In this document: positions 1,799-61,668 of the stretch, piece after piece
Numbering within the stretch: the stretch's first letter is position 1
Layout: each line of letters opens with the position of its first letter
Assembly: GCA_031266915.1 (NCBI GenBank)
Contig: JAISAB010000001.1
Location: 37,994-101,993 of the forward strand
DNA: 64,000 bases
Origin: Rickettsiales bacterium
GTDB taxonomy: Bacteria > Pseudomonadota > Alphaproteobacteria > Rs-D84
Direction of reading: 5' to 3'
The notes under the pieces: model-generated
The model's input: only the letters and a program-made list of their open reading frames with translations
Told to the model about the DNA's origin: nothing
Database searches by the model: none
Program-made: the position numbers and the translations under genes

Positions 1799-4588
1799 AT
1801 GAGCGACAATAAACTTTCCCCCGTCATGCAGCAGTATGTTGATATGAAAGCCGAAAATCCGGATGCTTTGTTATTGTTTCGCCTGGGCGATTTTTACGAG
1901 GTTTTTTTCGAAGACGCCAAAACCGTCAGCGCGGCCATCGGAATTGTCCTGACACACCGCGGCGTCGACGCGAACGGCGACGATATTCCCATGTGCGGAA
2001 TTCCCTGGCATGCGGCGGACAACTATTTCGGCCGGCTGGTTCGTGACGGGTACAAGGTCGCGCTGGTCGAACAGATGGAGACACCCGCCCAGGCCAAGGC
2101 CGCCGGACGAAAATTTGTCACCCGCCAGGTCGTGCGCGTCCTGACGCCGGGCACGCTGACGGACGAGAATCTGCTGACGCCGAAGAATTCGAATTTTCTG
2201 GTCGCGGTCGCTCCCAGGAACAAGGAACAGGAACAAGGAACAGGGGTATTGTCACCCGTTCCTTGTTCCTTTTCCTCGTTCCTGATAGCCGGTTGCGATA
2301 TTTCGACCGGCGAATTCTTTATCGGCGAATCGGCGGCCATACTGGATGATTTGGTCCGCGTCAATCCGGCCGAAATTATTTATCCTGAAACAGACGCGGA
2401 AAACCCAGAAATCATGCGTCTGCGCGACACATTCAAAACGACGCCCGTTTATGAAAAGCTGTACAATCGCGCTGACATCGATCAAATAGTATTTAAGATA
2501 TTCGGACAGAACTTCGCCTCTTCGCGGCAGGTGGAAGAGCGCAGAGTGCAGAGCGCAGTTGAAAAATCGCAGGGCGATTTTTCATCGAATCACGAATCAC
2601 GAGTTACGAGTCACGCCGCCGCCGGTTTGTGTGGCAGCGCGACCTGCAATGGGGCGGTGGCGCTGCTGGCCGGGTATCTGTTCAATACCCAGCGCGACGC
2701 CAATATCGCGTTCCGCGCGCCGTACGCTTTCAAGGCCGGAACGCAATTGCTGGTTGACAGCGCGACTTGGAAAAGCTTGGAAATCGACAGCCCAATCAAC
2801 GACGGCGGAACATGTCTGGTCGACATTCTAGACAAGACCAAAACCGCTGCCGGGGCGCGGCGCCTGCGTTCATATCTGCGCGCGCTGTCGGGCGACATCG
2901 GCGAAATCCGCCGACGCCAGGAACACATCGGCCATCTGATTCTGAACCGCGACGTCATGGGCGGGCTGGAACGGATTCTATCCCGCGTGCCCGACGTCGG
3001 CCGCAGTCTGGCGCGATTGCTGTCGGGACGCGGCGCGCCGCGTGACCTGCGCGTGGCGGCCGATTTTATGGTCATGCTTGGCGATGCAAAATCCATGGGC
3101 GCCCGCTTGGATTCAGATTTGGCGGCCAAGTTCGCAAACATCGACACGCATGACGCGCTGGCGGGTGAATTGAAATTTGCGCTGAACGACGAACTGCCGA
3201 CTTTTTTCCGCGACGGCGGAATCATCCGCGCCGGATTCGACCCGTCGCTGGACAATATGAAAGAACTGGCGAACGGCGCCAAGGAAACAATCGCCGGCCT
3301 GCAGGCTCAGTACGCTGCTGCGACCGGTGTGGGCGCGCTGCGGATAAAATACAACAACATACTCGGGTATTTTATCGAGGTCCCCAGCCCCCGCGCCGAC
3401 GCGCTGATGAATCCTGAAAACGGATTTATTCATCGCCAGACAATGGCCGGCAACATGCGCTTTACCACGCCGCGTTTAATCGATTTGGACAATGATGTCC
3501 GCAGCGCCGCCGAAAAAGCCGGGGCAATCGAATCTGAAATCATTGCGAATCTGATTGAAAAAATCCGGGCGGCGGCCGACGATTTGCTGAACACGGCGGA
3601 ATTAATCGCGGACGCAGACGTGTGGCGCGCGCTGGCCGATGTGGCCGACGAATATTCATGGGTGCGCCCCGCCGTGACCGAATCCCGAGCGTTCGACGTG
3701 CGCGGCGGCCGCCATCCGGTTATCGAGGCCGTTCTGCGTTCCCGCGGCGACGCGTTCGTTAAAAACGACTGCGTCCTGGACGGGCGGCAAATCGCGCTGT
3801 TGACCGGTCCGAACATGGCCGGAAAATCCACCTATCTGCGCCAGAACGCGCTGATTGTCGTGCTGGCGCATCTGGGCGCGTTCGTGCCGGCAGAACGCGC
3901 CACAATCGGCGTCTGCGATCAGCTGTTCAGCCGCGTCGGCGCCAGCGACAACCTGGCCGCGGGCCAGTCAACGTTTATGGTCGAGATGACGGAAACGGCG
4001 AATATTCTGAACCGCGCGACGCGCCAGTCCTTTATCATTTTCGATGAAATCGGCCGCGGAACCGCGACATACGACGGCATGGCGATTGCCCAGGCCGTAC
4101 TGGAATTTTTGGATGACGTCAAACCGCGCACCTTGTTCGCGACACATTATCATGAACTGACCGCGCTGGTACCATCGTCAGAGTTCAAAGTTCAAGGTTC
4201 AAAGTTCAAATATTCCGGTGATGAACCCGGGATCACGATTTCGCAAGACGGTTCGGCTTGCGCCCATCTGAACTCTGTTAACTGTCTGACCATAGAAATT
4301 CGCGAGCATAACGGCGAGATTGTCTTTATGCATAAAATAATTCCCGGCGTGGCCAGCCGCTCCTATGGAATACACGTTGCAAAAATGGCCGGCATACCAA
4401 TATCGGTGATAAATCGCGCCGAAGACGTCCTGAACGCGCTAGAAACCCGGACCGACGCGCCTGCGCGAAAAACGCCGCCTGCGGTCAAAAAGGTCGAAGA
4501 TGTCGACATGATTGTCGACGAGCCGGGCGTAAAACCGCAAAAAGTCGCGGCGCCTGCAAACAAAACACAGCTTTCCCTGTTTGGATAA
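1799..4588 (+). CDS. mutS: DNA mismatch repair protein MutS (carries three in-frame repeat insertions)
   Basis: 929 aa; MQQYxxxK...LFRLGDFYE N-terminus, Walker A GPNMAGKST, TFMVEMTETA; insertions at 2213-2283, 2521-2615, 4181-4210. Confidence 0.9.
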   Translation: MSDNKLSPVMQQYVDMKAENPDALLLFRLGDFYEVFFEDAKTVSAAIGIVLTHRGVDANGDDIPMCGIPWHAADNYFGRLVRDGYKVALVEQMETPAQAKAAGRKFVTRQVVRVLTPGTLTDENLLTPKNSNFLVAVAPRNKEQEQGTGVLSPVPCSFSSFLIAGCDISTGEFFIGESAAILDDLVRVNPAEIIYPETDAENPEIMRLRDTFKTTPVYEKLYNRADIDQIVFKIFGQNFASSRQVEERRVQSAVEKSQGDFSSNHESRVTSHAAAGLCGSATCNGAVALLAGYLFNTQRDANIAFRAPYAFKAGTQLLVDSATWKSLEIDSPINDGGTCLVDILDKTKTAAGARRLRSYLRALSGDIGEIRRRQEHIGHLILNRDVMGGLERILSRVPDVGRSLARLLSGRGAPRDLRVAADFMVMLGDAKSMGARLDSDLAAKFANIDTHDALAGELKFALNDELPTFFRDGGIIRAGFDPSLDNMKELANGAKETIAGLQAQYAAATGVGALRIKYNNILGYFIEVPSPRADALMNPENGFIHRQTMAGNMRFTTPRLIDLDNDVRSAAEKAGAIESEIIANLIEKIRAAADDLLNTAELIADADVWRALADVADEYSWVRPAVTESRAFDVRGGRHPVIEAVLRSRGDAFVKNDCVLDGRQIALLTGPNMAGKSTYLRQNALIVVLAHLGAFVPAERATIGVCDQLFSRVGASDNLAAGQSTFMVEMTETANILNRATRQSFIIFDEIGRGTATYDGMAIAQAVLEFLDDVKPRTLFATHYHELTALVPSSEFKVQGSKFKYSGDEPGITISQDGSACAHLNSVNCLTIEIREHNGEIVFMHKIIPGVASRSYGIHVAKMAGIPISVINRAEDVLNALETRTDAPARKTPPAVKKVEDVDMIVDEPGVKPQKVAAPANKTQLSLFG

Positions 4589-4610: not shown

Positions 4611-5600
4611 ATGAACGGATGGATAATCTTGGACAAGCCGTCAGGCATGACCAGCCGCGCCGCGGGCGGGCGCGTCATGCGTATGTTTGGCGCCGAAACG
4701 TTCGGCCATATCGGAACCTTGGACCCGATGGCGTCGGGATTGCTGCCGATTGCGCTGGGCAATGCCACCAAGATGATTCCTTTTTTCGAGAGCGAAGAGC
4801 GTAGAGCGCAGAGCGAAGGTTCCGCCGCTTCGCGGCAGAGCGCAGGTCGCAAGTCGCAGGTAGAAGATGTTGATAATAACGAACCATCTACGCTCTGCGC
4901 TCTTCGCTCTTCGACCTCTAAAGAATATCTATTCAGCGTTCAGTTCGGATTCGAAACTGATACGCTGGATATTACCGGAACGGTTGTCAAGGAAACCAAT
5001 GTTGTCCCATTGCCGGCTCAGGTTATGGCAGCGTGCGCCGCACTGACCGGAACGATTTATCAAACGCCGCCGGCCTATTCCGCGGTGCATGTCGGCGGGC
5101 GGCGCGGCTATGAACTGGCGCGCGCGGGCAAAGAATTCGAAATTCCGCCACGCCCGGTTACCATCGACGCGCTGGAATTGCTGGACGCGGGCAGAAAATC
5201 CTGGCAATTCCGCGTGGTGTGCGCGCCCGGAACATACGTTCGCGCCATTGCCCGCGACATCGCCGCGATGTGCGATACGGTCGCAACCGTGGACATGATA
5301 CGGCGCCTGCGTACCAGCGGCCTGGATATAAAAGATGCGGTCGGGCTTGATTTTTTAGAAAATCTGTTTCATAATGGCGGGAACTTCGAAGATTATTTGA
5401 AGCCTGTGGATTTCGGACTGGGGGACATTCCGGTTCTGAATCTGAACGACGCGGACGCCGGTTTATATAAACAGGGCGGCTTTGTCGAAATTGCGGCGGC
5501 GGGCGAACCGGGATTGGTTCGGGTCTTTTCAAACGGGCGGTTCATCGGAATCGGAACGTTTGACGGCAACCTGTTGAAGCCGAAACGAACACTTAACTAA
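4611..5600 (+). CDS. truB: tRNA pseudouridine(55) synthase TruB with an in-frame 127-bp palindromic insertion
   Basis: [13 protein letters not shown] and [18 protein letters not shown] motifs; start moved to Met11 (4611) to avoid overlap with mutS. Confidence 0.85.
4789..4915. repeat. Family D palindromic element (gagcgaagagcgtagagcgcagagcg ... cgctctgcgctcttcgctcttcgac) inside truB
   Basis: Arms are reverse complements; copies at 27350-27485 (in queH) and 30911-30995 (fabG-mnmG spacer); fragments at 2521-2560 and 35581-35618. Confidence 0.75.
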
Positions 5601-6427: not shown

Positions 6428-6898
6428 CTATTTGTTGTCCGCCAGTTTTTTCCGAAAGTCGTCCAGCGACACGACGCGTTTGTCGTCCGGTATGGTGCCC
6501 GGCGCGTCGCTTAGCGGCAATTCCATATCGTTGCCGGCCGATGGCGCGATTTTTGGTTGGAACGACAGCATAAAGTCTGCAGACGGATCCTTGAATTCAA
6601 TCAGCGCCGAAAACGGAACGCGGATAAAGAACGGACGGCCGTCGAACGTCAGCTGGACGCCGAATTCCTTGTCCGAAATATTCAGGTTGTTGTACGAATA
6701 CTGCAGGACTATCGTCATAATGTCCGGATACCGTATGCGCAGAAAATCCGGCAGAACGACGCCCGGGTCGCGCGTCTTGAACGTGATGAAAAAATGCGTC
6801 CCGTCGCCCAGGCCGTTGAACTGGGCGTGGATCAGCGCGTCTTTCACGACCGACTTCAGCGCGTTATCCAATAATTTCGGATAATCTATTTTCTTCAT
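6428..6898 (-). CDS. Probable ClpXP adaptor SspB-like protein
   Basis: IVLQYSYNNLNISDKEFGVQLTFDGRPFFIRVPFSALIEFKD resembles the SspB core (IVLNI...NL.L..D.V.F.ARF.G....V.VP..AV). Confidence 0.45.
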   Translation of the reverse strand: MKKIDYPKLLDNALKSVVKDALIHAQFNGLGDGTHFFITFKTRDPGVVLPDFLRIRYPDIMTIVLQYSYNNLNISDKEFGVQLTFDGRPFFIRVPFSALIEFKDPSADFMLSFQPKIAPSAGNDMELPLSDAPGTIPDDKRVVSLDDFRKKLADNK

Positions 6899-7161: not shown

Positions 7162-8197
7162 AAGCGAACGTGTCCCTGTCCAAACCGGTGGCCCAGACCT
7201 GGGCGCCGGACTTTCCCAATTCGTCGAACATGCGGGCGCGGGCGGCGGCGTCCAGATGCGCCGCGGCCTCGTCCAGCAGGACCAGCGGCGTCTTGCCCGC
7301 GCGCGCGCGCACCAGTTTGGCGTGCGCCAGAATCAAATCGATTAAAACGGCCTTTTGCTGACCGGTGCTGGTCAGGCTGGCCGGCAATTTCAGCGCGTTG
7401 TTATAAACGCCGAAGTCCGATTTATGCGCGCCGTCGACGAGCATTTTGTCGCCCTGCAGCTCGCGGTTCGCAGCCAGATAATTCAGATACGTGCCCTCGG
7501 CGTCGGCCGCCGTCCCGTTCAAGACCAGCGATTCGACCGGGCCAGAAACGGACACGGCGCAATTTTTGAAAAAATAGTTTATTTCGCCGGCATATCGGAT
7601 GCGCGCCGCGGCGACGGCGACGGCTGTCCGGGCAATTTGGACATCCAGCGCGGCCAGCCAGTCTGTGTCCGCCCCGCTTTTTAACGCGAATCCGCGTTCC
7701 GACAGCAGTTTCGATAATTTCGCGACGCGGCCCGAATGAACATGGTCAAAACTGGAAACCAGACGGTCGAAAAACGCGCGCCGCTCGGACGCGGAATCGA
7801 CGAACAGCCGGTCTTCCCTGGGCGTCAGCCAAACAATCCGCAGGCGCGACGACAAGTCCGACAGGGCGGCATTGTCGCCGTCGACGCGCGCGCGGCGGTT
7901 CGAATCGCCGGGATTGAAACAAACTGAGATTTCCGTATCGTCGGCCAGTTCGGCAAACACCGAAAAGCCGCCGGCCGGCGCCATGCGTCCAGCGACGAAA
8001 TCCGGCGCGAAACGCGCGATTTCGGTCATCGGCGCACCACGCAACCCGCGGTCGCCGCCCAGCATGGAAATGGCTTCCAATACGGCGGTCTTGCCCGCCC
8101 CGTTCGGCCCTGTGATGACTATGTTTTTTCCCGCCCCGGCGACGATGCGCGACGCCGTATGGTTTCTGAAATCGGTAAGAGTCAGGGTCGTTATCAT
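7112..8197 (-). CDS. recF: DNA replication and repair protein RecF
   Basis: 361 aa; N-terminus L.LTDFRN...ITGPNGAGKTAVLEAI Walker A as in RecF. Confidence 0.85.
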   Translation of the reverse strand: MITTLTLTDFRNHTASRIVAGAGKNIVITGPNGAGKTAVLEAISMLGGDRGLRGAPMTEIARFAPDFVAGRMAPAGGFSVFAELADDTEISVCFNPGDSNRRARVDGDNAALSDLSSRLRIVWLTPREDRLFVDSASERRAFFDRLVSSFDHVHSGRVAKLSKLLSERGFALKSGADTDWLAALDVQIARTAVAVAAARIRYAGEINYFFKNCAVSVSGPVESLVLNGTAADAEGTYLNYLAANRELQGDKMLVDGAHKSDFGVYNNALKLPASLTSTGQQKAVLIDLILAHAKLVRARAGKTPLVLLDEAAAHLDAAARARMFDELGKSGAQVWATGLDRDTFAYVPDAIFVACDNGKII

Positions 8198-11037: not shown

Positions 11038-11610
11038 ATGAAAAACATAAAATCGCTGATATACGAAATCCGCGGCGCTCAGGTCATGCTTGACGGCGAC
11101 TTGGCCCAATTGTACGGAATGGAAGCAAAACGACTAAATGAATCAGTCAAACGCAACATCGGTAAATTCCCACCGGAATTTATGTTTCAAATTACATTGG
11201 GAGAATGGGATGACTTGAAGTCGCAAATTGCGACCTCAAGTTTGAATAACATTTCAATCTTGAAGTCACAAATTGTGACTTCAAGATGGGGAGGCCGTAG
11301 AAAGCCGCCTTTCGTCTTTACCGAACACGGTGTCGTCATGCTGGCGTCCGTTCTGAACAGTCCGGCCGCCATCCAGATGAATATAGCAATAGTCAAATCC
11401 TTTATAAGCATGCGCGACTACGTTTCCCAGCCGATTCACAAAAAATTGGAAGACTTGGAAAAAATTCTTATGCTGCATATCGACGACACAAGTTTGAATT
11501 TTGCCGGCCATTCCGATGCAATCAATGAGATTATTGACAAATTGAACAACATGATGGAACATCCGCGCCCAAAACGGCAAATAGGATTTAAACTGGAAAA
11601 TTCGAAATGA
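11038..11610 (+). CDS. ORF6N-domain protein (phage/plasmid-type DNA-binding domain) inserted in the efflux operon
   Basis: IRGAQVMLDGDLAQLYGMEAKRLNESVKRNIGKFPPEFMFQ...LKSQIVTSRWGGRRKPPFVFTEHGVVMLASVL matches the ORF6N consensus; AT-rich; stop and start overlap the neighbours. Confidence 0.6.
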   Translation: MKNIKSLIYEIRGAQVMLDGDLAQLYGMEAKRLNESVKRNIGKFPPEFMFQITLGEWDDLKSQIATSSLNNISILKSQIVTSRWGGRRKPPFVFTEHGVVMLASVLNSPAAIQMNIAIVKSFISMRDYVSQPIHKKLEDLEKILMLHIDDTSLNFAGHSDAINEIIDKLNNMMEHPRPKRQIGFKLENSK

Positions 11611-12326
11611 AAGAGCCGAAAAATATTATCTCAATGGATAAAATCTGCAAAAGCTTTCCCATCGAAATGGGCGGCCAGCAGCAGGTCTTGTTCGACATAA
11701 CCTTCGATGTCCAGGCCGGCGAGTTCGTCGCCATCATGGGCCCGTCGGGCAGCGGAAAATCCACCTGTATGAATATCATCGGGGCGCTGGACACGCCGAC
11801 TTCCGGCGTATACAGGCTGTACGGCGACGACGTCACCCACATGTCGTCCGACGGGCTGGCGTTGATGCGAAACGAGCATATCGGGTTCGTCTTTCAGAAT
11901 TTCAACCTGCTGTCGAAACGCAACGTGCTGGACAACGTCATGCTGCCGCTGATGTATCGCGGCCTGTCGACGGACGAGCGCGTCGAACGCGCGCGCGCCA
12001 TGCTGCGGCGCGTGGGCTTGGAAAACTTCGAGACCTATCTGCCGCCGCAGCTGTCGGGCGGCATGCGCCAGCGCGTGGCCATCGCGCGCGCCTTGGCCGG
12101 CGACCCAAAGCTGATTTTGGCGGACGAGCCGACCGGCGCCCTGGACAGCAAGATGGGCAACGAAATCCTGCAATTCTTCAAGAAATTGAATAAAGAGATG
12201 GGCATTACCATCGTCATGATTACCCATGAATTCGACATCGCGAAATACGCCGGGCGCCTGATTCACATCCGCGACGGCCGCATAAACTATGACGGCGCCA
12301 TACCAAAGGACGATAGGAACCTGTAG
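11607..12326 (+). CDS. MacB/LolD-type ABC transporter ATP-binding protein
   Basis: Walker A GPSGSGKST, signature LSGGMRQRVAIARAL, Walker B LILADEPTGALD. Confidence 0.85.
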   Translation: MKEPKNIISMDKICKSFPIEMGGQQQVLFDITFDVQAGEFVAIMGPSGSGKSTCMNIIGALDTPTSGVYRLYGDDVTHMSSDGLALMRNEHIGFVFQNFNLLSKRNVLDNVMLPLMYRGLSTDERVERARAMLRRVGLENFETYLPPQLSGGMRQRVAIARALAGDPKLILADEPTGALDSKMGNEILQFFKKLNKEMGITIVMITHEFDIAKYAGRLIHIRDGRINYDGAIPKDDRNL

Positions 12327-12758
12327 GAGATAGTAGATACTAGATACGAGATAGGAGATATGCAACAATGTCCAAAGACAGCATTGCGCTTGAAAAAAGC
12401 AAAAAGTTTTCAGTCCGGATAATAAGATTCAGCAAATATTTGGGCGACAAACGGCGTGAATATGTTATGTCTAAACAGATATTGAGGTCCGGCACAGGAA
12501 TAAGCGCAAATCTATCTGAAGCAATTTATGCCGTTAGCAGAAGCGATTTTTTATCTAAACTGTATATCGCGCTAAAGGAATGTTCGGAAACGTTGCATTG
12601 GTTGGAATTGCTAAACGAATCAGGATACATAACCGATTTGCAATATACGAGTATGCATTCTGATTGTGAAGAAATACGCAAAATGTTGTCATCCGCAACA
12701 AAAACCGTACGGGAAGTGTGATTGGTATCTTGTATCTCCTATCTACTATCTCGTATCT
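12325..12758 (+). mobile_element. Candidate miniature insertion: four-helix-bundle gene flanked by imperfect inverted repeats (ggagatagtagatactagatacgagataggagata / tatcttgtatctcctatctactatctcgtatct)
   Basis: Inverted gagata/gtagata-unit repeats at 12325-12360 and 12725-12758 bracket an AT-rich gene that splits the ABC ATPase from its permease. Confidence 0.35.
12368..12721 (+). CDS. Four-helix-bundle protein (23S rRNA intervening-sequence protein family)
   Basis: KQILRSGTGISANLSEAIYAVSRSDFLSKLYIALKECSETLHWLELL matches the family core (RSGTSIGANI.EA..A.S..DFI.K..IALKEA.ET.YWL). Confidence 0.65.
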   Translation: MSKDSIALEKSKKFSVRIIRFSKYLGDKRREYVMSKQILRSGTGISANLSEAIYAVSRSDFLSKLYIALKECSETLHWLELLNESGYITDLQYTSMHSDCEEIRKMLSSATKTVREV

Positions 12759-12775
12759 AAAAAACGGAGTTTTTT

Positions 12776-14692: not shown

Positions 14693-14765
14693 CGTCATTC
14701 CCGCTTGGACCACCCACGAAAAACAGTCGTTTTTCGCGGGGCCTGGTGGCGGGAATCCAATGTAT
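14693..14765. repeat. Family H 68-bp hairpin element
   Basis: cccgcttggaccacccacgaaaaacagtcgtttttcgcggggcctggtggcgggaa; near-identical copy, reverse-complemented, at 28086-28152. Confidence 0.7.
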
Positions 14766-15238
14766 TCAAGCTGTGAACAATGCCCGTATGATGAATACAT
14801 TGGATACCGGCCTTCGCCGGGGCTAAAGGCACCCGAGGTGACAATTTTTATTGTCATCGCTTCGCGATGCTTTACGTACCTGCGCTAGGCGTGACAAAAG
14901 TTTGTTTTAATTTAAGGCACATCCCTGTCGGTTGAGCGATAAACTATACGCTATCTGCCATATGCTATTTTTTCCTATTTTTCCATTGTGCTGAAAATTC
15001 GCACGCGCTATAGTTGTCTTGTCGACGGGTGTTCCGTCGATGGGGTCTGATAACCCTTTATTGTGCGTCGTGAATAATCACCGCGCTTTTGCGCCGTTTT
15101 TATTTCGACGAAAAACAACTCCTGACTCGGTCAGGAGGGCGCGATATATCTGAATAAGCGCGCAATTCACAATATTGTTATCAGCCTCCTGACCGCCTAT
15201 TTTCGGCGGTTTTTACTTAACTGCAACAGGAGGATATT

Positions 15239-17413: not shown

Positions 17414-17456
17414 TGTCGCTCCTTTTTTTTTCGTGACACGCGATACGTAATACGAA

Positions 17457-17828
17457 CTATTTTGTTATACTTTTCAATAATCCCGTCAGCATTTGATTTA
17501 TTCTTTCTATATCGCTTGTCAGTGTTTCAAACATGTTTTTATTTATAAAATTCAAATCCGACGCCAGCATAATCTGGCATTTTAATTCTGCGGCTGAACC
17601 TCTTGCAATACCAATAAACTGCTTTAACTCTCCGGTTGTAATCCTCGCGCCGCCCTCTGATAAATTAGAACAAACTGAAACCGCCGCACGGCGCATCTGA
17701 CTTGTTAATCCGAATTTTTCATCCTGCGGGAATTCTTTTGTAATTTCATAAATAACCTTTACAAAATTCCTAGATATTTTAAACACATCAAGTTCTTCTA
17801 TCGATTTCATTTTAGCCCCACGTATCAC
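17457..17828 (-). CDS. Four-helix-bundle protein (23S rRNA IVS protein family), second copy, between parA and parB
   Basis: LDVFKISRNFVKVIYEITKEFPQDEKFGLTSQMRRAAVSVCSNLSEGGAR...FIGIARGSAAELKCQIMLA closely matches the family consensus; AT-rich; start may be Met 17810. Confidence 0.65.
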   Translation of the reverse strand: MIRGAKMKSIEELDVFKISRNFVKVIYEITKEFPQDEKFGLTSQMRRAAVSVCSNLSEGGARITTGELKQFIGIARGSAAELKCQIMLASDLNFINKNMFETLTSDIERINQMLTGLLKSITK

Positions 17829-18586
17829 GCTTTCTCAACTATCTCCGTCGCGACGCGCAGGTACGCCTGGGCGCCGGCGGAGCCGAAATCATAGAATAAC
17901 GCCGGCTTGCCGTGGCTGGGGGCCTCGGAAACGCGGACGTTGCGCGGCACGACCGTTTTAAAGACCTTGTCGCCAAAGGTGTTGCGAACGTCTTCCTCGA
18001 CCGCCTTGGTCAATCCATAGCGTCGATCATACATCGTCAGCAAAACGCCCAGGATTTCCAAATTCGGATTCCAATTTTTGCGGATTTCCGAAATCGTATT
18101 GACCAGATGCTGGACGCCTTCCAGCGCAAAGAACTCGCATTGCAGCGGCACGACAATCGAATCGGCCGTCGTCAGCGCGTTCAGCGTCAGATAGCCCAGC
18201 GCCGGCGGACAGTCCAACAATATGTAATCGTAATGGCCGCGCACCGGTTCCAACGCGTCGCGTAGACGGTATTCGCGGTTGTCCATATCCAGCAGCTCGG
18301 CCTCGGCACCCGACAAGGCCGGACTGGCCGGCAGGATGTGCATGCCCGGAACGGCGGTGGACAGAATATTGTCGGCCGCGCTGGCGGTTCCCATGATAAC
18401 GCCGTACACGCTTTGACGATGGGCGGCGCGGACAAACCCCAGACCTGTTCCGGCGTTGCCCTGCGGGTCCAGGTCTATCAGCAGGACGCGCTTTTTGATG
18501 GCGGCCAGGGACGCCCCGATATTGATGGCCGTCGTAGTCTTGCCGACGCCGCCCTTTTGGTTGGCAAACGCGATAATCTTTGTCAT
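17825..18586 (-). CDS. parA: Chromosome partitioning ATPase ParA
   Basis: KIIAFANQKGGVGKTTTAINIGASLA deviant Walker A; 253 aa. Confidence 0.9.
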   Translation of the reverse strand: MTKIIAFANQKGGVGKTTTAINIGASLAAIKKRVLLIDLDPQGNAGTGLGFVRAAHRQSVYGVIMGTASAADNILSTAVPGMHILPASPALSGAEAELLDMDNREYRLRDALEPVRGHYDYILLDCPPALGYLTLNALTTADSIVVPLQCEFFALEGVQHLVNTISEIRKNWNPNLEILGVLLTMYDRRYGLTKAVEEDVRNTFGDKVFKTVVPRNVRVSEAPSHGKPALFYDFGSAGAQAYLRVATEIVEKA

Positions 18587-27291: not shown

Positions 27292-28000
27292 AAAAATCCG
27301 CCTTGTTTTGTTGTCGTGCTGCGCGCCGTGTTCCTGCGGCGCTATAAAAGAGTTAGTAGAGTGTAGAGCGCAGAGCGAAGGTTTCGCCGCTTCGCGGCAG
27401 AGTGAATGTCGCAGGTCGCAGGTAGAAGGTGTTGATAATGACGAACCACCTACGCTCTGCGACCTGCGATCTACGCTCTTCGACTTTATCGTCTTGTTCT
27501 ATAACCCTAATATTTATCCCGATACCGAATACCAGAAACGGTTGGCGGAACAAATCAGATACTGCGAATCATTGGATGTGAAATATGCCGTCGGCGATTA
27601 TGACCACGCCGCGTGGCTGAATTCCGTGCGCGGCCTAGAATCAGAGCCTGAGCGTGGCAAGCGCTGCACGCAGTGTTTCCGCCACAGATTTCGTTTCGCA
27701 AAACAGTGGGCGATGGAAAACGGATACAACGCTATCGCGTCCGTTCTGGGCGTGTCACGTCACAAAGACCAGGCACAGGTCGACAGCGCGGCGCGGGAAG
27801 AAATAGGGAACGGGGAACCCGCCTTCGCCATCCACCTTCGCCGAGGCTACGGGGGACAAGAGGCTACGGCGGGCAGGCAGGAACAAGGAATAATTTATCT
27901 GCCTATCAAATTGGATGAAAGTCTGCGCCAGGAAATTAGCAAAAAGGCCGGCTTTTACCGCCAGAATTACTGCGGCTGCGAGTTTTCAATGCGAAAATAA
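27275..28000 (+). CDS. queH: Epoxyqueuosine reductase QueH (DUF208) with two in-frame repeat insertions
   Basis: LLSCCAPCS, LFYNPNIYPDTEY, RCTQCFRHRF, YRQNYCGCEFS hallmarks of QueH; insertions at 27350-27485 (family D) and 27805-27895 (family E). Confidence 0.7.
   Translation: MDAMHEKIRLVLLSCCAPCSCGAIKELVECRAQSEGFAASRQSECRRSQVEGVDNDEPPTLCDLRSTLFDFIVLFYNPNIYPDTEYQKRLAEQIRYCESLDVKYAVGDYDHAAWLNSVRGLESEPERGKRCTQCFRHRFRFAKQWAMENGYNAIASVLGVSRHKDQAQVDSAAREEIGNGEPAFAIHLRRGYGGQEATAGRQEQGIIYLPIKLDESLRQEISKKAGFYRQNYCGCEFSMRK
27350..27485. repeat. Family D palindromic element inside queH
   Basis: agagcgcagagcgaaggtttcgccgcttcgcggcagag...ggtagaaggtgttgataatgacgaaccacctacgctctgcg; co-linear with the truB copy. 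Confidence 0.75.
27805..27895. repeat. Family E element (ccttcgccgaggctacggcgggcaggcaggaacaaggaa) inside queH
   Basis: Reverse complement of 40094-40186; shares the ggaacaaggaacagg core with mutS 2213-2283. Confidence 0.65.
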
Positions 28001-28017
28001 GCCTTTTGATTATATAT

Positions 28018-28085
28018 CAATTAAGAATTAAAAGTAAATGGGCCGCGCAGCGGCAAGCCGCAATTCATAATTCTTAATTTTTAAT
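28018..28085. repeat. Family B aattaagaattaa element
   Basis: caattaagaattaaaagtaaatgggccgcgcagcggcaagccgcaattcataattcttaattttta. Confidence 0.55.
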
Positions 28086-28152
28086 ACATTGGATTCCCGC
28101 CACCAGGCCCCGCGAAAAACGACTGTTTTTCGTGGGTGGTCCAAGCGGGAAT
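28086..28152. repeat. Family H 68-bp hairpin element (reverse orientation)
   Basis: Reverse complement is ~identical to 14693-14765. Confidence 0.7.
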
Positions 28153-30192: not shown

Positions 30193-30908
30193 AAGACAAA
30201 GTGGCGCTGGTGACCGGCGCGACGGGCGGAATCGGCGTTTGCGTCGCCAAGAAACTGCATGACGCGGGCGCGACGGTTGTCGTGACCGGCCGCAATATTG
30301 ACAAGCTGAACGCCGAGTTCGACGACGCCTATATCAAGATTCCATCCGACCTATCGCTGGATGGCGCGGCGGATGAATTGGTTGCAAAAACTATCGAAAA
30401 GGCCGGTAAAATCGATATTTTAATCAACAACGCCGGCATTACAAAAGACACCCTGATAATGCGCATGACGGACCAGCAGTTCGACGACGTCATCAACACC
30501 AATTTGCGCTCGACCTTCAAAATGTGCCGCGCGGCGGTGCTGCCGATGGCGAAGAACAAATTTGGCCGCATTATCAACATGGCGTCCATCATCGGCGTCA
30601 TCGGCAACGCGGGCCAGGCGAACTATGCCGCGTCCAAGGGCGGAATGATTGCGATGACTAAATCCATCGCAGCAGAGATGGGCAAAAAAGGCATCACGGC
30701 GAACTGCGTCGCGCCTGGATTTATCCGCACGCCGATGACGGATGTTTTGACCGACGAGCAAAAGGAAGCATATCTGAAGCAAATCCCCGCGGGGCGTTTC
30801 GGCGAGCCTGAAGACATCGCCTGCGCATGCGTTTTCCTGGCCAGCGACGGCGCATCGTACATCAACGGCCAGACGCTGCACGTCAACGGCGGGCTGGGAC
30901 GGTTTTAA
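30180..30908 (+). CDS. fabG: 3-oxoacyl-[ACP] reductase
   Basis: Start Met 30180; KVALVTGATGGIGVCVA, NAG, YAASKGG; 243 aa like FabG. Confidence 0.85.
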   Translation: MFSLKDKVALVTGATGGIGVCVAKKLHDAGATVVVTGRNIDKLNAEFDDAYIKIPSDLSLDGAADELVAKTIEKAGKIDILINNAGITKDTLIMRMTDQQFDDVINTNLRSTFKMCRAAVLPMAKNKFGRIINMASIIGVIGNAGQANYAASKGGMIAMTKSIAAEMGKKGITANCVAPGFIRTPMTDVLTDEQKEAYLKQIPAGRFGEPEDIACACVFLASDGASYINGQTLHVNGGLGRF

Positions 30909-30910: not shown

Positions 30911-30995
30911 AGTTCGAAGAGCGCAGAGCGTAGAGCGCAGGTGGAGTATATTGATAATAAGGAACCACCTTCGCTCTACGCTCTGCGAATTTCGA
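30911..30995. repeat. Family D palindromic element (intergenic copy)
   Basis: caagttcgaagagcgcagagcgtagagcgcaggtggagtatattgataataaggaaccaccttcgctctacgctctgcgaa. Confidence 0.7.
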
Positions 30996-33130: not shown

Positions 33131-36181
<3,051 letters not shown>

Positions 36182-36191: not shown

Positions 36192-36935
36192 ATGAAAATA
36201 ACATTGACGCCTGAAATTTATTTTACAAAAGTGCCGCCTACGCTGGATATGAACGTGCGCAGCGAATTGTACAGCACCAACGAATTCACTTTCGCAGTGG
36301 CGGTCATCCTGTCGGCCCAGGCCACGGATAAAAAGGTGAACGAAGTCACGCCCGCGCTATTCGCCGAAGCCCCGACGCCCGAAGCGATGCTGATATTGGG
36401 CGAGGACGGCCTGAAAAAACATATCAAGGTTATATCTTTTTTTAACAACAAGGCGAAAAATATTATCGGACTGGCGCAAATGCTTGTCTCCCCCCTCTTG
36501 GGGGGGAATACCCGCGGAGCGGGGGAGGGGGAGCTCCCCCCAGTCTCGCTCCGCGAGACAGCCCCCCTCAAAGAGGGGGGCACATGGCGCTTTCCGGACG
36601 AATATCATAACCAGCGGGCGCTGATGGCGCTGCCCGGAATCGGGCAAAAGACCGCCAACGTCGTCATGAACGTCTTATGGGGCGCGCCGATGATTGGCGT
36701 GGACACGCATGTTTTCCGCAATGCGCATCGCTACGGATGGGTCGGCGCATCCGACGACACGCCCGAAAAGGTCGAGGCGAAACTGCTGAAACTGATTCCG
36801 AAAAAATACCACGCGATGGTCAACCACGTGATGGTCCTGCACGGGCGTTATACCTGCAAGGCATTGCGACCGCGATGCGCGGACTGCCCAGTTGCGCAAT
36901 GGTGCAACGCGCCTGACAAGAATCTGCCGATATAA
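36192..36935 (+). CDS. nth: Endonuclease III (Nth) with ~100-bp in-frame G/C-rich palindromic insertion
   Basis: HhH motif LPGIGQKTANVVMNVLWG and FeS cluster C-x6-C-x2-C-x5-C at the C-terminus; insertion at 36486-36585. Confidence 0.8.
   Translation: MKITLTPEIYFTKVPPTLDMNVRSELYSTNEFTFAVAVILSAQATDKKVNEVTPALFAEAPTPEAMLILGEDGLKKHIKVISFFNNKAKNIIGLAQMLVSPLLGGNTRGAGEGELPPVSLRETAPLKEGGTWRFPDEYHNQRALMALPGIGQKTANVVMNVLWGAPMIGVDTHVFRNAHRYGWVGASDDTPEKVEAKLLKLIPKKYHAMVNHVMVLHGRYTCKALRPRCADCPVAQWCNAPDKNLPI
36486..36585. repeat. Family J G/C-rich palindromic element (gtctcccccctcttggggggg ... cccccctcaaagaggggggcac) inside nth
   Basis: Related cccccctcttgggggg segment at 52490-52512. Confidence 0.6.
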
Positions 36936-36941
36936 TTCAAT

Positions 36942-36974
36942 ATCGAATTACGAGTCACGAATTACGAATCTCGA
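36942..36974. repeat. Family C cgaattacgagtcacgaattacgaatc repeat
   Basis: Copies at 2586, 37604, 41862, 45208, 50491, 52951; usually next to terminator hairpins. Confidence 0.55.
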
Positions 36975-36975
36975 A

Positions 36976-37003
36976 AAAACCGGCCGCGGCCGGTTTTTTT
37001 TAC
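36976..37003. terminator. Bidirectional terminator (aaccggccgcggccggtt with flanking A/T runs)
   Basis: Serves nth on + and the small genes on -. Confidence 0.55.
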
Positions 37004-37560: not shown

Positions 37561-37633
37561 ACAAACTGATTATATCAGAATATAAGACAATTACAAATAA
37601 AATATCGAATCACGAGTCACGAATTACGAATCA

Positions 37634-37662
37634 CGAAAAAAACCGCCGAACGGCGGTTTTTT
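37634..37662. terminator. Bidirectional terminator downstream of pheT
   Basis: aaaaaaaccgccgaacggcggttttttt. Confidence 0.6.
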
Positions 37663-37666
37663 TATT

Positions 37667-40072
37667 TCACGTCCGCAGTTTTGCGTCGCAACTTTTTTCA
37701 ACCAGCGCGATAACCGAATTCTGAATTTCCATCAATTCCGCATCCGCGATATTGCCCAGCGGCTGCAGCACGATTTCAAACGCTATTGATTTTTTTCCGT
37801 CCGGCAAATCGAATATGTCGAACACATTCGTCTCGATAATGCGGTCGTCCGCGCCACGCGCGATTTCCGCCAATTCGGCCGGCTCGACATTATTCGCCGC
37901 GATAAACGCAAAATCGCGCGTAATCAGCGGGAATTCCGCCAACTCAATTTTGTCCAGCGCCGGGGCGTCCGCCGTCCATGGCGAATAAGACGCCAAAGAC
38001 GACACATCGTCGACCAATCCCAGCGCGACATTCGTCTTGATGCCGAACTTTTTCGCAACTGACGGGTGCAATTCAGCGAACACGGCGACCGTTTTGTTAT
38101 CCAAAATCAATTTTCCGGCACGATACGGATGCGCCCACAATGGCGGATTGTCGTCGTTTTCCGCGACTGCGCCCGGAAACAGGGACATCAAATCGTCGCG
38201 AATATCATAGACAGACGCATCGCGGCCGTGCTTTACGCCGATTTTTCCGCCCAGGATGCCCGTGCGCACGACTATCAATTGGTCGTGCTGCCACCCGGGG
38301 ACCGGACCGTCGAACACAGCCGCCAGTTCGAACAGAGACAAATTCGAACGGCGGAATCTGTCGTTGCCGGCAACAACGTCCAGCATCGATTGAACCAAAG
38401 AGTTCCGCGCCGTATCGAACGTATCGATAATCGGATTCAAGACGCGGACGCTTTCCTTGTACGACAGGATTTTTTCCTTTTTCGAATCTCCGAAGCCGTA
38501 ATTCATGCATTCGTAATATCCCATCGCCGCCAGCTGTTTTTTCACGGACGGGGCGCGCGCGGTGAAATCTATTTTGGCAGCGTTTTCATCCCTGACGATA
38601 TTGTCGTATCCGTATAATCTTATCAGCTCCGAGACAATGTTCTCGGGAATCGCCACGTCCACGCGCGCGGGCCTGGGGGTAATGGTCCATATGTCGTTAT
38701 TTTCTTCGACGACAAACCCCAGGGCTTCCAGAATCCGTTTCTGCATCGCCGCGTCCAATTCGATTCCGGTCTTTTTCTTGAACAGCGCCGGAGTATATTC
38801 TATGCGGCGCGGTTCCATAATTTTCAGCCATTCGGCGCCGCTTATATTTTTCATCGAATCCGGCGTTTCAGACATAAACGTCAGCTTCGGATTTTTTTCG
38901 TCCCAAACATAACGCGGCGTCATGGCGATTCCGCCGCACGCGTCCGTGATTATTTTCACGGCCTGCAGAATGCCTTGGGGCGCGATTGTCGGGTCTATGC
39001 CGCGCTCGTACCTGTAAGACGCGTCCGTGCTTATTCCGATTCGTTTGGCGGTCCTGCGCACGGTCACCGGGTCGAAATATGCGCTTTCCAGTAAAATATT
39101 TTTCGTCGCATCGGTCGTCATGCCACGCGCGCCGCCGATAACGCCTGCCAGCGCCAGAATCCCGGCCGCGTCCGCAATCACCAAATCGGTTTCTACTAAT
39201 TCGTGCTCGGCGCCGAACAGGTCGGTGAATTTCTCGCCCCGCTTCGCGTTGCGAACGATAATATCGCCGTGAATTTCGTCGGCGTCAAAGCAATGCATAG
39301 GCTGCCCCAGATCATAGCAGATATAATTAGTCGCGTCGATTGGAGCGTTCTTTGGGTTGATTCCGATGGCCGCCAGGCGCGCGGCAATCTTCGGATTCGA
39401 CGGCGCCATCTTGATGTTCTTAATCTCGCACAGATAATAAACCGGACACGCGTCATAGTTTTCAACAACCGCCCGGCGCGCGCCGTCTTTGAATTCGCCG
39501 GCATAATTGTCGTACCTGTCGATAAATTCGCCGATTCCGGCCGCGGCCAAATCACGCGCGATGCCGCGCACCGCCAGATAGTCCGGACGGTTCGGCGTAA
39601 TGCCGGCGTCAAAAATGGATAATGGACAATGGATGATGGATGATGGAATCTGCCCCAATTTCTCAACCTTTTCATCCAGTTCGATAATGCCGTCGTGGTC
39701 GTCGTTTATGCCCAGTTCCCGGCCCGAACACATCATGCCGTCGGATATAACGCCGCGGATTTTGCCCGATTTGATTTCCATATTGCCAATCTTACATCCG
39801 GGGACCGCCAGCGCGGACACCAATCCGACGCGGACGTTTGGCGCGCCGCACACGACCGTGCGCAATGCGCCGGTGCCGTCGTCGACCCGCAGCACATGCA
39901 GGTGGTCGCTGTCGGGATGCTTTTCGCATTCGACAATCCTGGCCGCAACCGGATGCGCGGTTTCGATTAATTCTTCGACCTCCAGACCGATTCGGGTCAG
40001 GGTGTCGGCAATCTCGGCCGGCGTCGCATTGGTGTCCAAATAATCTTTCAACCAATCATAAGTCCATTTCAT
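37667..40072 (-). CDS. pheT: Phenylalanyl-tRNA synthetase beta subunit
   Basis: 801 aa; N-terminal tRNA-binding domain, B3/B4, B5, C-terminal FDX-ACB-like domain order. Confidence 0.9.
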   Translation of the reverse strand: MKWTYDWLKDYLDTNATPAEIADTLTRIGLEVEELIETAHPVAARIVECEKHPDSDHLHVLRVDDGTGALRTVVCGAPNVRVGLVSALAVPGCKIGNMEIKSGKIRGVISDGMMCSGRELGINDDHDGIIELDEKVEKLGQIPSSIIHCPLSIFDAGITPNRPDYLAVRGIARDLAAAGIGEFIDRYDNYAGEFKDGARRAVVENYDACPVYYLCEIKNIKMAPSNPKIAARLAAIGINPKNAPIDATNYICYDLGQPMHCFDADEIHGDIIVRNAKRGEKFTDLFGAEHELVETDLVIADAAGILALAGVIGGARGMTTDATKNILLESAYFDPVTVRRTAKRIGISTDASYRYERGIDPTIAPQGILQAVKIITDACGGIAMTPRYVWDEKNPKLTFMSETPDSMKNISGAEWLKIMEPRRIEYTPALFKKKTGIELDAAMQKRILEALGFVVEENNDIWTITPRPARVDVAIPENIVSELIRLYGYDNIVRDENAAKIDFTARAPSVKKQLAAMGYYECMNYGFGDSKKEKILSYKESVRVLNPIIDTFDTARNSLVQSMLDVVAGNDRFRRSNLSLFELAAVFDGPVPGWQHDQLIVVRTGILGGKIGVKHGRDASVYDIRDDLMSLFPGAVAENDDNPPLWAHPYRAGKLILDNKTVAVFAELHPSVAKKFGIKTNVALGLVDDVSSLASYSPWTADAPALDKIELAEFPLITRDFAFIAANNVEPAELAEIARGADDRIIETNVFDIFDLPDGKKSIAFEIVLQPLGNIADAELMEIQNSVIALVEKSCDAKLRT

Positions 40073-40093: not shown

Positions 40094-40186
40094 AGGAACA
40101 GGAACAAGGTGCGGGAACGGGTTGTCTGTTCCTTGTTCCCGCCTGCCCGCCGTAGCCTCGGCGAAGGAGGGTTCCTCGTTCCTTTT
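40094..40186. repeat. Family E element in the pheT-pheS spacer
   Basis: ggaacaggaacaaggtgcgggaacgggttgtctgttccttgttcccgcctgcccgccgtagcctcggcgaagg. Confidence 0.65.
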
Positions 40187-48818: not shown

Positions 48819-50449
48819 TGGCTTCATTCGGCAGCAATTTCACAGACGAACTACGCGCGCGTTTATCGATTGTGGACGTTGTGGGCCGGCGCGTGCCGCT
48901 GGTCAAAAAGGGTCAGAAATTCTGGGGATGCTGTCCGTTCCACAACGAAAAAACACCCAGCTTTACCGTGGACGAGGAACGCGGCCGCTATCACTGCTTC
49001 GGCTGCGGCGAACATGGCGACATAATCTCGTTCGTGATGAAGACCAACAATATGGATTTCAAGGCCGCCATCGCCGAGCTTGCGCAACAGGCCGGATTAA
49101 AACTGCCTGATTACAAACCAAAATCCGCCACGCAAATCGCGGCCGAGGAAAATTATTTTTCCATATCCGAATCAGCGGCGAAAATATACCAGCAGAAACT
49201 GTTCGACGCGGACGGCGCGCACGCATTGGAATATATAAAAAAGCGCGGATTCAGTGCGGATACAATCAAAAAATATCGCCTGGGGTACGCGCCGAAAAAC
49301 AATATAATATCCGCCAAATTCAGTAATACGAAAATTGAAAATTTAATGGCGACGGGCCTTGTGCGCCAGGGAAATTACGGTCCGTACGATTTCTTTCGCG
49401 AAAAGTTAATGTTCCCGATTTTCAATCCAGCGGGCCAGGTCATCGCCTTTTCCGGCCGCAGCCTGGACGGCAGCGAACCGAAATACATCAACACGTCCGA
49501 CACCGAAATGTTTCATAAAAGGGGCACCGTGTTCGGGCTGAACTTCGCGCGGGACGCCATCCACAGAAAAAACCGCAGCATCGTGGTCGAGGGCCAAATC
49601 GACGCAATCCAAATGCAGGTCCACGGATTCGGCGAGACAGTCGCACCGCTGGGCACCGCACTGACCGAGGAACACATAGCAATACTGTGCAAATTAAACC
49701 GCAATATAATATTCTGTTTTGACGGCGACACTGCCGGGCAAAAGGCCGCGGCGCGCGCCTGCGGCATCGTGCTGTCATTCGTGCGCGACACGTCGGACAT
49801 CCGCTTCGCCTTTATGCCGCGCGGCGCGGACCCGGACGAAGTTTTAAAATCGCCCGGCGGCGCGAACGCAATGGCGAAAATCATCGACAGCGCCCAGCAC
49901 CTGACCGACTATTTCTGGGACATGGCGAACAAATCCTTTGTCACGGCCACGCCGGGCGGCCGGACCCAAGCTGAGAAATTTATTAAAAAAGAATTGGAAA
50001 AAATCACGGATTCCGCCTTGCGCGGCGAATTCGAAAAGGAATACAATACCCGAAAATTCAACCAATGGCACAAATGGACCAGGACCAAAGGCGATGGGCA
50101 AAAAGCCCCGATTCCCAGCGTCGACGCGCTGACGCAAAAAACGCTGGGCGGCATTTGCGCCGCATACCCCGAACTGATTGAAAAGCACGCCGAATTTTTT
50201 ATCAGCGCCGGTATTAACCTTGACACCGACGAATTACCCGATACCCAATACCCATTACCCATCGAGGACGCCGAAAAGTTTATCGTGTCGCTGAAGTTGA
50301 AAAAGTATTTGGAAAAATTGAAAATTGAAAAACGCGAATTGACGAACAAATTGCTGACAGGCGATGAAACGGCGCGCGGCCGGATTTCCGCCATCGACGC
50401 CGAGATTGATAAATCGTCGCAGCGCTTGAATTTGATAACTGGGGACTGA
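48818..50449 (+). CDS. dnaG: DNA primase
   Basis: Zinc-binding CPFHNEKTPSFTV...YHCFGCGEHGD; Toprim EGQIDAIQ and DGDTAGQKAA. Confidence 0.9.
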   Translation: MASFGSNFTDELRARLSIVDVVGRRVPLVKKGQKFWGCCPFHNEKTPSFTVDEERGRYHCFGCGEHGDIISFVMKTNNMDFKAAIAELAQQAGLKLPDYKPKSATQIAAEENYFSISESAAKIYQQKLFDADGAHALEYIKKRGFSADTIKKYRLGYAPKNNIISAKFSNTKIENLMATGLVRQGNYGPYDFFREKLMFPIFNPAGQVIAFSGRSLDGSEPKYINTSDTEMFHKRGTVFGLNFARDAIHRKNRSIVVEGQIDAIQMQVHGFGETVAPLGTALTEEHIAILCKLNRNIIFCFDGDTAGQKAAARACGIVLSFVRDTSDIRFAFMPRGADPDEVLKSPGGANAMAKIIDSAQHLTDYFWDMANKSFVTATPGGRTQAEKFIKKELEKITDSALRGEFEKEYNTRKFNQWHKWTRTKGDGQKAPIPSVDALTQKTLGGICAAYPELIEKHAEFFISAGINLDTDELPDTQYPLPIEDAEKFIVSLKLKKYLEKLKIEKRELTNKLLTGDETARGRISAIDAEIDKSSQRLNLITGD

Positions 50450-50490
50450 CACGGCCCGCGCGTACGACCTTGAATTGATGTTTTGTCATC

Positions 50491-50549
50491 TTACGAGTCA
50501 CGAGTTACGAATCACGAAAAAAACCGGTCTTTTTGCCGGCTTTTTAATT
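50491..50549. repeat. Family C repeat plus weak hairpin/T-run
   Basis: cttacgagtcacgagttacgaatcacgaaaaaaaccggtctttttgccggcttttt. Confidence 0.4.
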
Positions 50550-52332: not shown

Positions 52333-52410
52333 CAATTAACAGAGCAGAGATAACAGTTAACAAATAATAAAGAATAGAGAATAAAGAATAAATAACATTA
52401 TCACCAGTGT

Positions 52411-53844: not shown

Positions 53845-53845
53845 T

Positions 53846-61646: not shown

Positions 61647-61668
61647 AATCAACTTTACCGAACGTGTA

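Follow-up and report, generated by a model that had tools for sequence, protein, structure and literature searches.

A heptamer-armed hairpin element inserted in frame in truB of an uncultured Rickettsiales bacterium, and its likeness to PF05635 (S23p) cassettes

In the window analysed here, a 64,000-nt stretch of contig JAISAB010000001.1 from a Rickettsiales bacterium, the truB gene (positions 4611-5600, + strand) is interrupted by a hairpin element of 131 bp (4788-4918, + strand), the arms of which are built from tandem 7-nt units. The net insertion amounts to 117 nt, or 39 codons, and related copies were found elsewhere in the window. The same arm architecture brackets genes of the PF05635 (S23p) family in this DNA and across phyla, and we consider it probable that the truB element is a copy-and-paste hairpin element without an open reading frame (ORF), which has the architecture of the heptamer-armed S23p/intervening sequence (IVS) class and was kept in truB as an in-frame, stop-free segment in a tolerant loop.

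The truB ORF reads through the element and encodes an intact protein of 329 aa with the Pfam domains TruB_N (5e-44) and TruB-C_2. E. coli TruB structures in the PDB matched this ORF at 2e-39, and the alignment split exactly at the element, with query residues 1-65 and 102-326 pairing with contiguous TruB residues and the middle left unmatched. The GTLDP, KEY and GTYVR motifs were kept, and the catalytic and structural motifs are intact. An earlier note on this DNA had described the read-through and the position between conserved TruB blocks correctly, while its estimate of about 42 gained residues has to be lowered to a net 39. In a search of 5.8 billion proteins, the 119 other TruB orthologues listed were 279-296 aa long and lacked the segment. 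Alignments with 10 and with 54 orthologues each contained one clean 39-residue gap, bordered by the conserved LGxATKMIPF helix on one side and the invariant KEY motif on the other, and in the syntenic relative L002 (mreB-xseB-mutS-truB-rpsO) the truB site was uninterrupted at the DNA level. Judged by these alignments, the truB segment is an insertion. An intein, an intron and a native linker were dropped as candidates, because there was no Rfam intron match, the ORF is continuous and all orthologues are without the segment.

An independently assembled Logan contig, SRR14710922_219572 (3379 bp), was identical across the aligned stretch from the mutS 3′ end through truB with the insert in place, and its TruB of 329 aa is likewise the same; an artefact of a single assembler is therefore excluded. 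When the inserted peptide was searched against the 5.8 billion proteins, three proteins shared a 5-residue word and none scored, a weak negative since TruB itself was not re-reported, which argues to that extent against a native conserved peptide. The AlphaFold2 model of the protein had a mean predicted local distance difference test (pLDDT) value of 84.8, with core blocks mostly at 80-98. Insert residues 60-79 extended the native helix at a pLDDT of about 60 and residues 80-99 fell below 50, so the insert is predicted to be translated as a low-confidence helix extension followed by a disordered loop.

The truB element is a reverse-complementary hairpin, as first proposed. Its arms (4781-4818 and 4888-4925) span 38 nt at 84% complementarity around a core of 24 nt at 92% (4789-4812 and 4887-4910). 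The RNA fold of 4780-4925 reached -69 kcal/mol, compared with a shuffle mean of -47.5 (z = -5.24), and none of 200 dinucleotide shuffles matched it. The left arm (4788-4818, + strand) consists of the four heptamers GAGAGCG, AAGAGCG, TAGAGCG and CAGAGCG followed by AAGG, that is, four NAGAGCG units with six fixed positions and one variable position, which were also recovered by the period-7 tract scan. The right arm (4888-4918, + strand) reads CTA and then CGCTCTG, CGCTCTT, CGCTCTT and CGACCTC, and was identified by its inverted-repeat match. Between the arms lie a small internal hairpin, GCCGC-TTC-GCGGC (4824-4836, + strand), seen in the sequences and folds of the truB and queH copies only, a second, inner heptamer tract of GTCGCAA/GTCGCAG units (4834-4868, + strand) and the loop motif ATAATAACGAACCA (4873-4886, + strand).

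The element, here called family D, has a second copy in frame in queH (27354-27484, + strand), where its orientation and reading frame match those of the truB copy. Positions 4796-4913 in truB and 27358-27475 in queH are 88% identical over 118 nt, including the non-repetitive interior and the loop, and the queH copy folds at -62 kcal/mol (z -5.0). QueH orthologues are about 37-39 residues shorter between GAIKEL and DFIVLFYNPNI, and the closest of them, in the syntenic locus L207, has an empty site. No clear direct repeat indicating a target-site duplication was found at the empty sites of L002 and L207, which are too diverged for junctions to be defined. Three of the six frames of the truB/queH element are stop-free, and the two insert peptides share 64% aa identity despite 88% nt identity, a comparison that gives no sign of selection on the inserted peptide itself. 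Another QueH orthologue (P0241) has an in-frame inserted segment of its own between direct peptide repeats HPLSAMPTSPAKGGGN, which we take, by eye and without a family scan, to read like a DUF559/Vsr-type endonuclease.

A third, short D-type hairpin (30913-30995, + strand) fills most of the 99-nt spacer between a fabG-like gene (stop at 30906-30908) and mnmG (start at 31008). It has arms of 34 nt with 85% complementarity and folds at -51.1 kcal/mol (z -9.7). This hairpin shares the D arms and the loop motif, yet is only 74% identical over 42 nt; of the two copies announced as near-identical in the earlier note, the one in queH is a direct copy and the one in the spacer is a relative. The interiors of the truB, queH and spacer copies measure 20-69 nt and hold no ORF. 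The identity of the truB and queH copies through the non-repetitive loop, together with the loop motif shared by all three, shows that the D element has been copied.

Heptamer tracts inside genes were not restricted to family D. MutS is 929 aa long in the window and 839-869 aa in three relatives, and the extra residues sit at heptamer-tract sites. A complete GGAACAA-type heptamer hairpin lies in frame at 2210-2289 (+ strand; +12 aa against the L002 MutS), with 35-nt arms at 86% complementarity, a 10-nt loop and a fold of -49.8 kcal/mol (z -7.8). At 2533-2618 (+ strand; about +30 aa against a relative) there is a chimeric insert composed of a GAGCG-type left tract (2533-2557), a small hairpin and a CGAATCA-type right tract, and a GTTCAAA-type tract at 4175-4215 (+ strand) falls within a region of +26 aa. 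A single GCGCAGA/GAGCG-type tract in ileS (35577-35617, + strand) brought no net insertion, with a gain of only 1 aa in the alignment to a solved bacterial IleS (8c8u), and a single GGATNAT tract in pheT (39611-39652) likewise left the length unchanged against a solved homologue. The GAGCG-type fragments noted earlier in mutS and ileS are therefore present in both genes, the ileS one adding no length. A further heptamer tract was seen in dnaG at 50232-50265.

Comparison with orthologues thus confirmed extra residues in TruB (+39), QueH (about +37-39) and MutS (+12, +30 and +26 aa), and did not do so for IleS. It also confirmed them in Nth, from an unrelated source: the nth gene (36192-36935) has an in-frame insert of 31 aa at 36492-36590, which belongs to a different, non-heptamer element family and is made of five short G/C-rich hairpins (CCCCCCTCTTGGGGGGG, CCCGCGGAGCGGG, GGGGGAGCTCCCCC, GTCTCGCTCCGCGAGAC and CCCCCCTCAAAGAGGGGGG). 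The description of the host genes as essential had to be given up, as truB, queH and mutS are normally not essential. The notion that only essential genes were hit was rejected on the same ground, since the complete hairpins lie in these three genes, while in the essential ileS and pheT there are only single tracts, which leave the length as it was.

A scan of the window for short tandem repeats detected 45 tracts at period 7 and 0-3 at each other period from 4 to 14. Markov controls gave an expectation of 0.1 period-7 tracts, and 50 kb of E. coli K-12 contained none. The count varies with the threshold, other thresholds giving 37-39 tracts (range 37-45). About a dozen motif cores are represented, among them GAGCG, GTCGC, ATAGT, AATTAAG, CGAATCA, GGTAATC, GATTTAN, NNAGATA, GTTCAAA, GGAACAA, GGTACTN and GGATNAT, and many of the tracts pair in inverted orientation to form hairpins. 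Period 7 is the signature of nearly all element families in the window, the presence of which had been recognised in the earlier note without their periodicity or the link to PF05635. Although about 81% of the window is coding, 28 of 39 tracts were not fully inside genes, as would be expected if insertions had passed through a filter of selection. Motif clustering by single linkage was uninformative, as most AT-rich motifs were chained into one cluster, and an Rfam scan of the window at gathering thresholds returned four tRNAs only, with no family for these hairpins and no rRNA match.

Some of the repeats form larger arrangements. Tracts of CGAATCA/CGAGTCA lie directly 5′ of terminator-like hairpins with a G+C stem and a T-run, a composite unit repeated at 36934-37002, 37596-37664 and 50477-50545. 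A 73-nt hairpin-forming repeat is present as two inverted copies with 99% complementarity (14697-14769 and 28080-28152; outer stem ATTCCCGC...GCGGGAAT), one of them in the queH-fabD spacer adjoining an AATTAAG heptamer hairpin. A 31-nt repeat, 97% complementary and ending in GGAACAAGGAA, occurs at 27860-27890 in queH, where it encodes ...EATAGRQEQG..., and at 40129-40159 in the pheT-pheS spacer.

The window also contains two genes of the PF05635 family (S23p, the "23S rRNA intervening-sequence protein", an Avd-like four-helix bundle), both inserted within operons. The first (12368-12721) encodes a 117-aa S23p/four-helix-bundle protein (Pfam 5.6e-27) and separates the ATPase gene of an ABC efflux operon from the permease gene. 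It forms a complete cassette (12322-12761, + strand), exactly enclosed by inverted arms of five NNAGATA units (12322-12362 and 12722-12759), which have 30 nt at 87% complementarity, and a fold of -122 kcal/mol in which a terminal stem closes the ORF. In the same efflux operon, an ORF6N (KilA-N-like) gene (11038-11610) with its own 33-nt inverted repeat at 11214-11285 was located between the HlyD-like and ABC ATPase genes. The second PF05635 gene (17457-17828, within 17432-17834 on the - strand) sits between parB and a parA-like gene (Pfam 9.3e-36; bAvd-like, 3e-8). A CGTGACA/CGCGATA/CGTAATA tract flanks this gene on one side, and its counterpart on the other is only the short complementary CGTATCACG. 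The two PF05635 proteins gave no BLASTP alignment to each other.

For a wider survey, 80 loci encoding relatives of the 12368-12721 protein were fetched from genome contigs of Bacillota, Bacteroidota, Lentisphaerota, Verrucomicrobiota, Acidobacteriota, Myxococcota, spirochaetes and Proteobacteria, and 77 of them entered an inverted-repeat test. The PF05635 loci considered in this work represent, taken together, one subfamily and a few others (IVP2, L192, L201, L066 and Coxiella). The best inverted repeat between 160 nt upstream and 160 nt downstream scored at least 14 in 64% of the 77 loci and in none of 265 shifted controls. The significant arms had a best self-period of 7 in all cases (49/49) and a median length of 34 nt, and a period-7 tract lay within 250 nt of the PF05635 gene in 69 of the 80 loci. 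The heptamer motif differed from locus to locus. PF05635 genes with their arms occurred as 60-68%-identical units in unrelated phyla, and no cassette was situated inside an rRNA gene among 20 surveyed loci.

On viral contigs, heptamer tracts flanked the gene on both sides in three of four cases and on one side in the fourth. Finished plasmids, mostly cyanobacterial, had period-7 arms at seven of eight loci; among these plasmids are those of Nostoc punctiforme PCC 73102, Nostoc ATCC 53789, Planktothrix, Dolichospermum, Euhalothece and Treponema saccharophilum. Nostoc accounted for half of all plasmid matches. The arms in Nostoc punctiforme PCC 73102 are (AATTCGC)4 ... (GCGAATT)4. The only fetched plasmid locus without clear period-7 arms was that of Anabaena cylindrica, where the four-helix-bundle gene stands between cas2 and cas1. 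The Anabaena gene is grouped with two heptamer-armed cassettes under the finished cyanobacterial plasmid loci L217, L219 and L220; the cassette of Planktothrix is located between DrmD and PglX, and that of Nostoc ATCC 53789 apparently splits a dcm methyltransferase gene. Period-7 arms therefore bracket PF05635 genes in the window, across phyla, on viral contigs and on finished plasmids.

A scan of metagenome contigs for GAGCG arrays gave 120 loci, of which 22 had an inverted partner, mostly with loops of 10-40 nt, and 98 were unpaired. A narrow PF05635 hidden Markov model gave three weak matches in these 120 loci, and arm-guided ORF extraction followed by Pfam confirmed two loci, L192 and L201, in which GAGCG-type arms enclose PF05635 ORFs (93.5 and 100.2 bits). 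In addition, tracts elsewhere in a locus matched the motif of the local cassette with at most one mismatch in 50% of cases, compared with 13% after permutation, and none of 1000 permutations reached the observed mean distance.

In the truB copy, the right arm (CGCTCTN) pairs with the outer GAGCG tract, whereas the right arm CTGCGAC of the queH copy matches the inner left tract, GTCGCAG. A different hairpin with GCAAAGT/TCAAAGT arms occupies the same queH codon position in L206 (2003-2096; JGI 3300010167 Ga0123353_10210297), and its loop, ATAATAACGAAACA, matches the D-family loop. L206 is a more distant relative, and the closer relative L207 has the empty queH site. In 1.16 Mb of fetched DNA, the degenerate loop motif ATAAT[AG]A[CG]GAA[AC]C was confined to the three D copies and the L206 hairpin, against a chance expectation of about 0.07 by a back-of-envelope estimate. 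These comparisons indicate that both arms can change jointly around a loop that is kept; at the queH site, there has been either concerted turnover of the arms with loops left in place or renewed use of one site by related elements. L207, the closest relative found, itself has heptamer tracts within fabD and mnmG (CTCAACT and GTAGCAG motifs; 4760-4802, 6568-6608, 7269-7355 and 7665-7707) and a density of 0.57 tracts per kb, while other relatives in the clade have few or none. Different clade genomes carry different inserts in different genes, and the tracts of L207 indicate that heptamer elements inside genes are characteristic of the clade, each genome having its own insertions.

As no PF05635 ORF lies between its arms, we call the truB element an ORF-less relative of the PF05635 cassette class and not a cassette. 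We propose that it is a small selfish, non-autonomous derivative of PF05635 cassettes, which might spread by the same copy-and-paste route as these cassettes. Our preferred guess for this route is a hairpin or single-strand intermediate together with microhomology between heptamer units and the target, in which the heptamer arrays would change in size by slippage, and pairing within the strand would preserve the complementarity of the arms. The only candidate helper encoded by the elements would be the S23p pentamer. Within genes, an insertion would survive selection only if its length is a multiple of three and it is stop-free and located in a tolerant surface loop. As RNA, the stem of about 30 bp could plausibly be cut by RNase III, like that of the Coxiella IVS, and may lower expression. 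Derivation from a cassette, the route of mobility and RNase III processing are all inferred.

Several observations weigh against this proposal. The arms of the second PF05635 gene in the window are weak (inverted-repeat score of only 7.5), and 36% of the surveyed loci were without a strong inverted repeat. No S23p cassette with GAGCG arms was seen in the window, and the exact D-family pattern TTGATAATNANGAACCANCTNCGCTCT had no match in the genome and metagenome contig collections, which do not include the source genome. The motif sharing between cassettes and nearby tracts could partly reflect genome composition, and the elements are tied to PF05635 by architecture and statistics, not by mechanism. 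No transposase, reverse transcriptase (RT) or nuclease could be linked to the elements, and a 117-aa four-helix bundle is unlikely to be a mobility enzyme. The tracts in ileS and pheT look more like replacements or in-situ arrays than like insertions, and their zero net length would fit generation in situ or conversion better. Finally, efficient cleavage of the stem by RNase III would make it irrelevant whether the frame is preserved, so the RNA step may not occur.

The alternative that survives best, which we nevertheless consider unlikely, is a classical miniature inverted-repeat transposable element (MITE) derived from an insertion sequence, or a true element of the Rickettsia palindromic element (RPE) type, served by a transposase encoded elsewhere for which the heptamers would be multiple binding sites. 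Repeated subterminal binding sites are known in several transposon families, and the element fits such a description in being palindromic, about 130 bp long, multi-copy, mostly intergenic and occasionally in frame in genes. However, about a dozen heptamer motifs would require as many cognate transposases, and the same arms enclose PF05635, which is not a transposase gene, in hundreds of unrelated genomes. No target-site duplication is definable at the diverged empty sites, and no transposase was found among the window ORFs scanned, the only recombinase being a split tyrosine integrase (62145-62803). The latter lies in a low-GC island (34-43% GC; 52000-64000), which also contains virB3/virB4, a Type ISP restriction-modification gene (57062-60061) and a SIR2-like gene (63011-63967).

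Less likely than a MITE is an origin without mobility, in which heptanucleotide repeats arise locally by polymerase slippage and then fold back or are duplicated in inverted orientation. Heptamer simple repeats are over-represented in many genomes, which has been attributed to slippage (PMC4692102), and the repeat number varies among Coxiella strains (PMC4990558). The 98 unpaired metagenomic GAGCG arrays and the ileS and pheT tracts without net length also speak for slippage. On the other hand, this process does not account for the identity of the truB and queH copies throughout their non-repetitive interior and loop, for inverted period-7 arms placed exactly at the cassette boundaries, or for the 60-68%-identical units of gene and arms in unrelated phyla.

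A feature selected for the benefit of the host, either a regulatory RNA hairpin (for cleavage by RNase III or decay, for pausing of translation or for insulation in the manner of a terminator) or a selected peptide linker, has a slighter chance still. It would agree with the great stability of the stems, with the many intergenic hairpins that begin at stop codons or abut terminators and with the Coxiella IVS stem, a bona fide RNase III site (PMC4990558). A benefit of this kind is at odds with the lack of the insert in all orthologues, with its predicted disorder, with the divergence of the peptide between the two copies, with the protein search in which no match to the peptide scored, and with the differences among clade genomes in both the inserts and the genes hit. 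A chimeric join at a repeat is extremely improbable: repeats often break or mis-join metagenome assemblies, and many related contigs end in such tracts, but the Logan contig is identical through the insert, the ORF remains open and in frame, and the same architecture is found in finished genomes of cultured strains.

A broader idea, which we regard as doubtful, is that heptamer-armed hairpins make up a pan-bacterial mobile superfamily. Its autonomous form would encode an S23p/Avd-like pentamer. This protein would recognise a stem of about five units with a 7-bp period and would promote copying, in which host RNase III or a polymerase/RT might also take part. Were this true, one system would explain both the intervening sequences of 23S rRNA and the in-frame peptide insertions in housekeeping genes of some lineages, together with much of the heptanucleotide-repeat excess in cyanobacteria (the short tandemly repeated repetitive sequences, STRR), Xanthomonas and Geobacter, and arms would turn over in concert while loops persist.

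Palindromic insertions in frame allow selfish DNA, by a direct and rare route, to add peptide segments to conserved enzymes, and have so far been tied mainly to Rickettsia. The 7-nt periodic arms connect them with the origin and mobility of rRNA intervening sequences, with the function of the very widespread, Avd-like PF05635/S23p proteins and with the bacterial heptanucleotide excess, STRRs included. This link predicts that S23p binds heptamer-array duplexes, that ORF-less hairpins pair with arm-matched cassettes and that RNase III processes operon and coding transcripts at the stems. For annotation, it should be borne in mind that such inserts lengthen orthologues and break metagenome assemblies.

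Among known systems, repetitive extragenic palindromic (REP) sequences and their paired form (REPIN), with their REP-associated tyrosine (RAYT) transposases, and MITEs such as Correia, ERIC and Nezha are short, dispersed, non-autonomous hairpin repeats. The D element resembles REP/REPIN in being a short, hairpin-forming, dispersed and non-autonomous repeat. It differs in that its arms have no GTAG head and that no RAYT/Y1 transposase occurs among the window ORFs scanned. Arms with a 7-nt period are not a feature of the REP and MITE families, and no target-site duplication was defined here.

The RPEs, reportedly described by Ogata et al. in 2000 and by Claverie and Ogata in 2003, are closer in form. 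Both are palindromic dispersed repeats of about 100-150 bp, mostly intergenic, and both are sometimes found in frame in conserved genes, the product of which thereby gains a surface peptide that its orthologues lack. The host is different: the truB element belongs to an uncultured bacterium with 51% GC, whereas Rickettsia is AT-rich (about 30% GC). The protein labels read "MAG: Rickettsiales bacterium" for this metagenome-assembled genome and "Alphaproteobacteria bacterium" for its relatives. The window as a whole has 50.8% GC, which does not bear out the high-GC genome assumed at first. Moreover, the arms here are tandem heptamers of many motifs, and the same arms enclose PF05635 genes. The earlier interpretation as the RPE phenomenon is apt as an analogy, the element being multi-copy, palindromic and inserted in frame; nothing ties the truB element to the RPE families themselves.

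Another known system is the S23p IVS of Coxiella burnetii and Leptospira. In Coxiella burnetii it is a 428-nt "selfish" element in 23S rRNA that contains an S23p ORF and carries 2-3 tandem GACAGAT heptamers in strain-variable number; its terminal inverted repeats form a stem of 28 bp, at which RNase III cuts, its origin and mobility being called unclear (PMC4990558). The terminal inverted repeats, with tandem heptamers in a stem of about 28-35 bp, are shared, and the IVS, which is regarded as selfish, encloses a PF05635-family gene as the window cassettes do. In contrast to the IVS, the truB element is without an ORF and sits in a protein-coding gene, where it would be translated, and the window cassettes lie between protein genes, none being in helix 25 or 45 of 23S rRNA. 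In the full-text literature covered, which leaves aside subscription journals, no general description of heptamer arms around PF05635 genes was found, and Coxiella was the only mention.

Heptanucleotide repeats, finally, are a recognised bacterial excess, known as STRR in cyanobacteria (Calothrix/Nostoc), GGGAATC in Xanthomonas, GGACCGG in Geobacter and TAACTGA in Beggiatoaceae (PMC4692102, PMC2700814, PMC4679880). Like the window tracts, they are tandem 7-nt units of 3-6 copies, strongly over-represented, mostly intergenic and partly arranged as inverted pairs, and those of Geobacter are also found inside genes. These papers treat them as simple repeats, G-quadruplex formers or regulator sites, without a link to PF05635, whereas the window tracts are organised as hairpins, some copies of which share non-repetitive loops. 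On cyanobacterial plasmids, PF05635 cassettes have STRR-like heptamer arms, and the (TGGTCAC)n arm of Euhalothece resembles a classical STRR unit.

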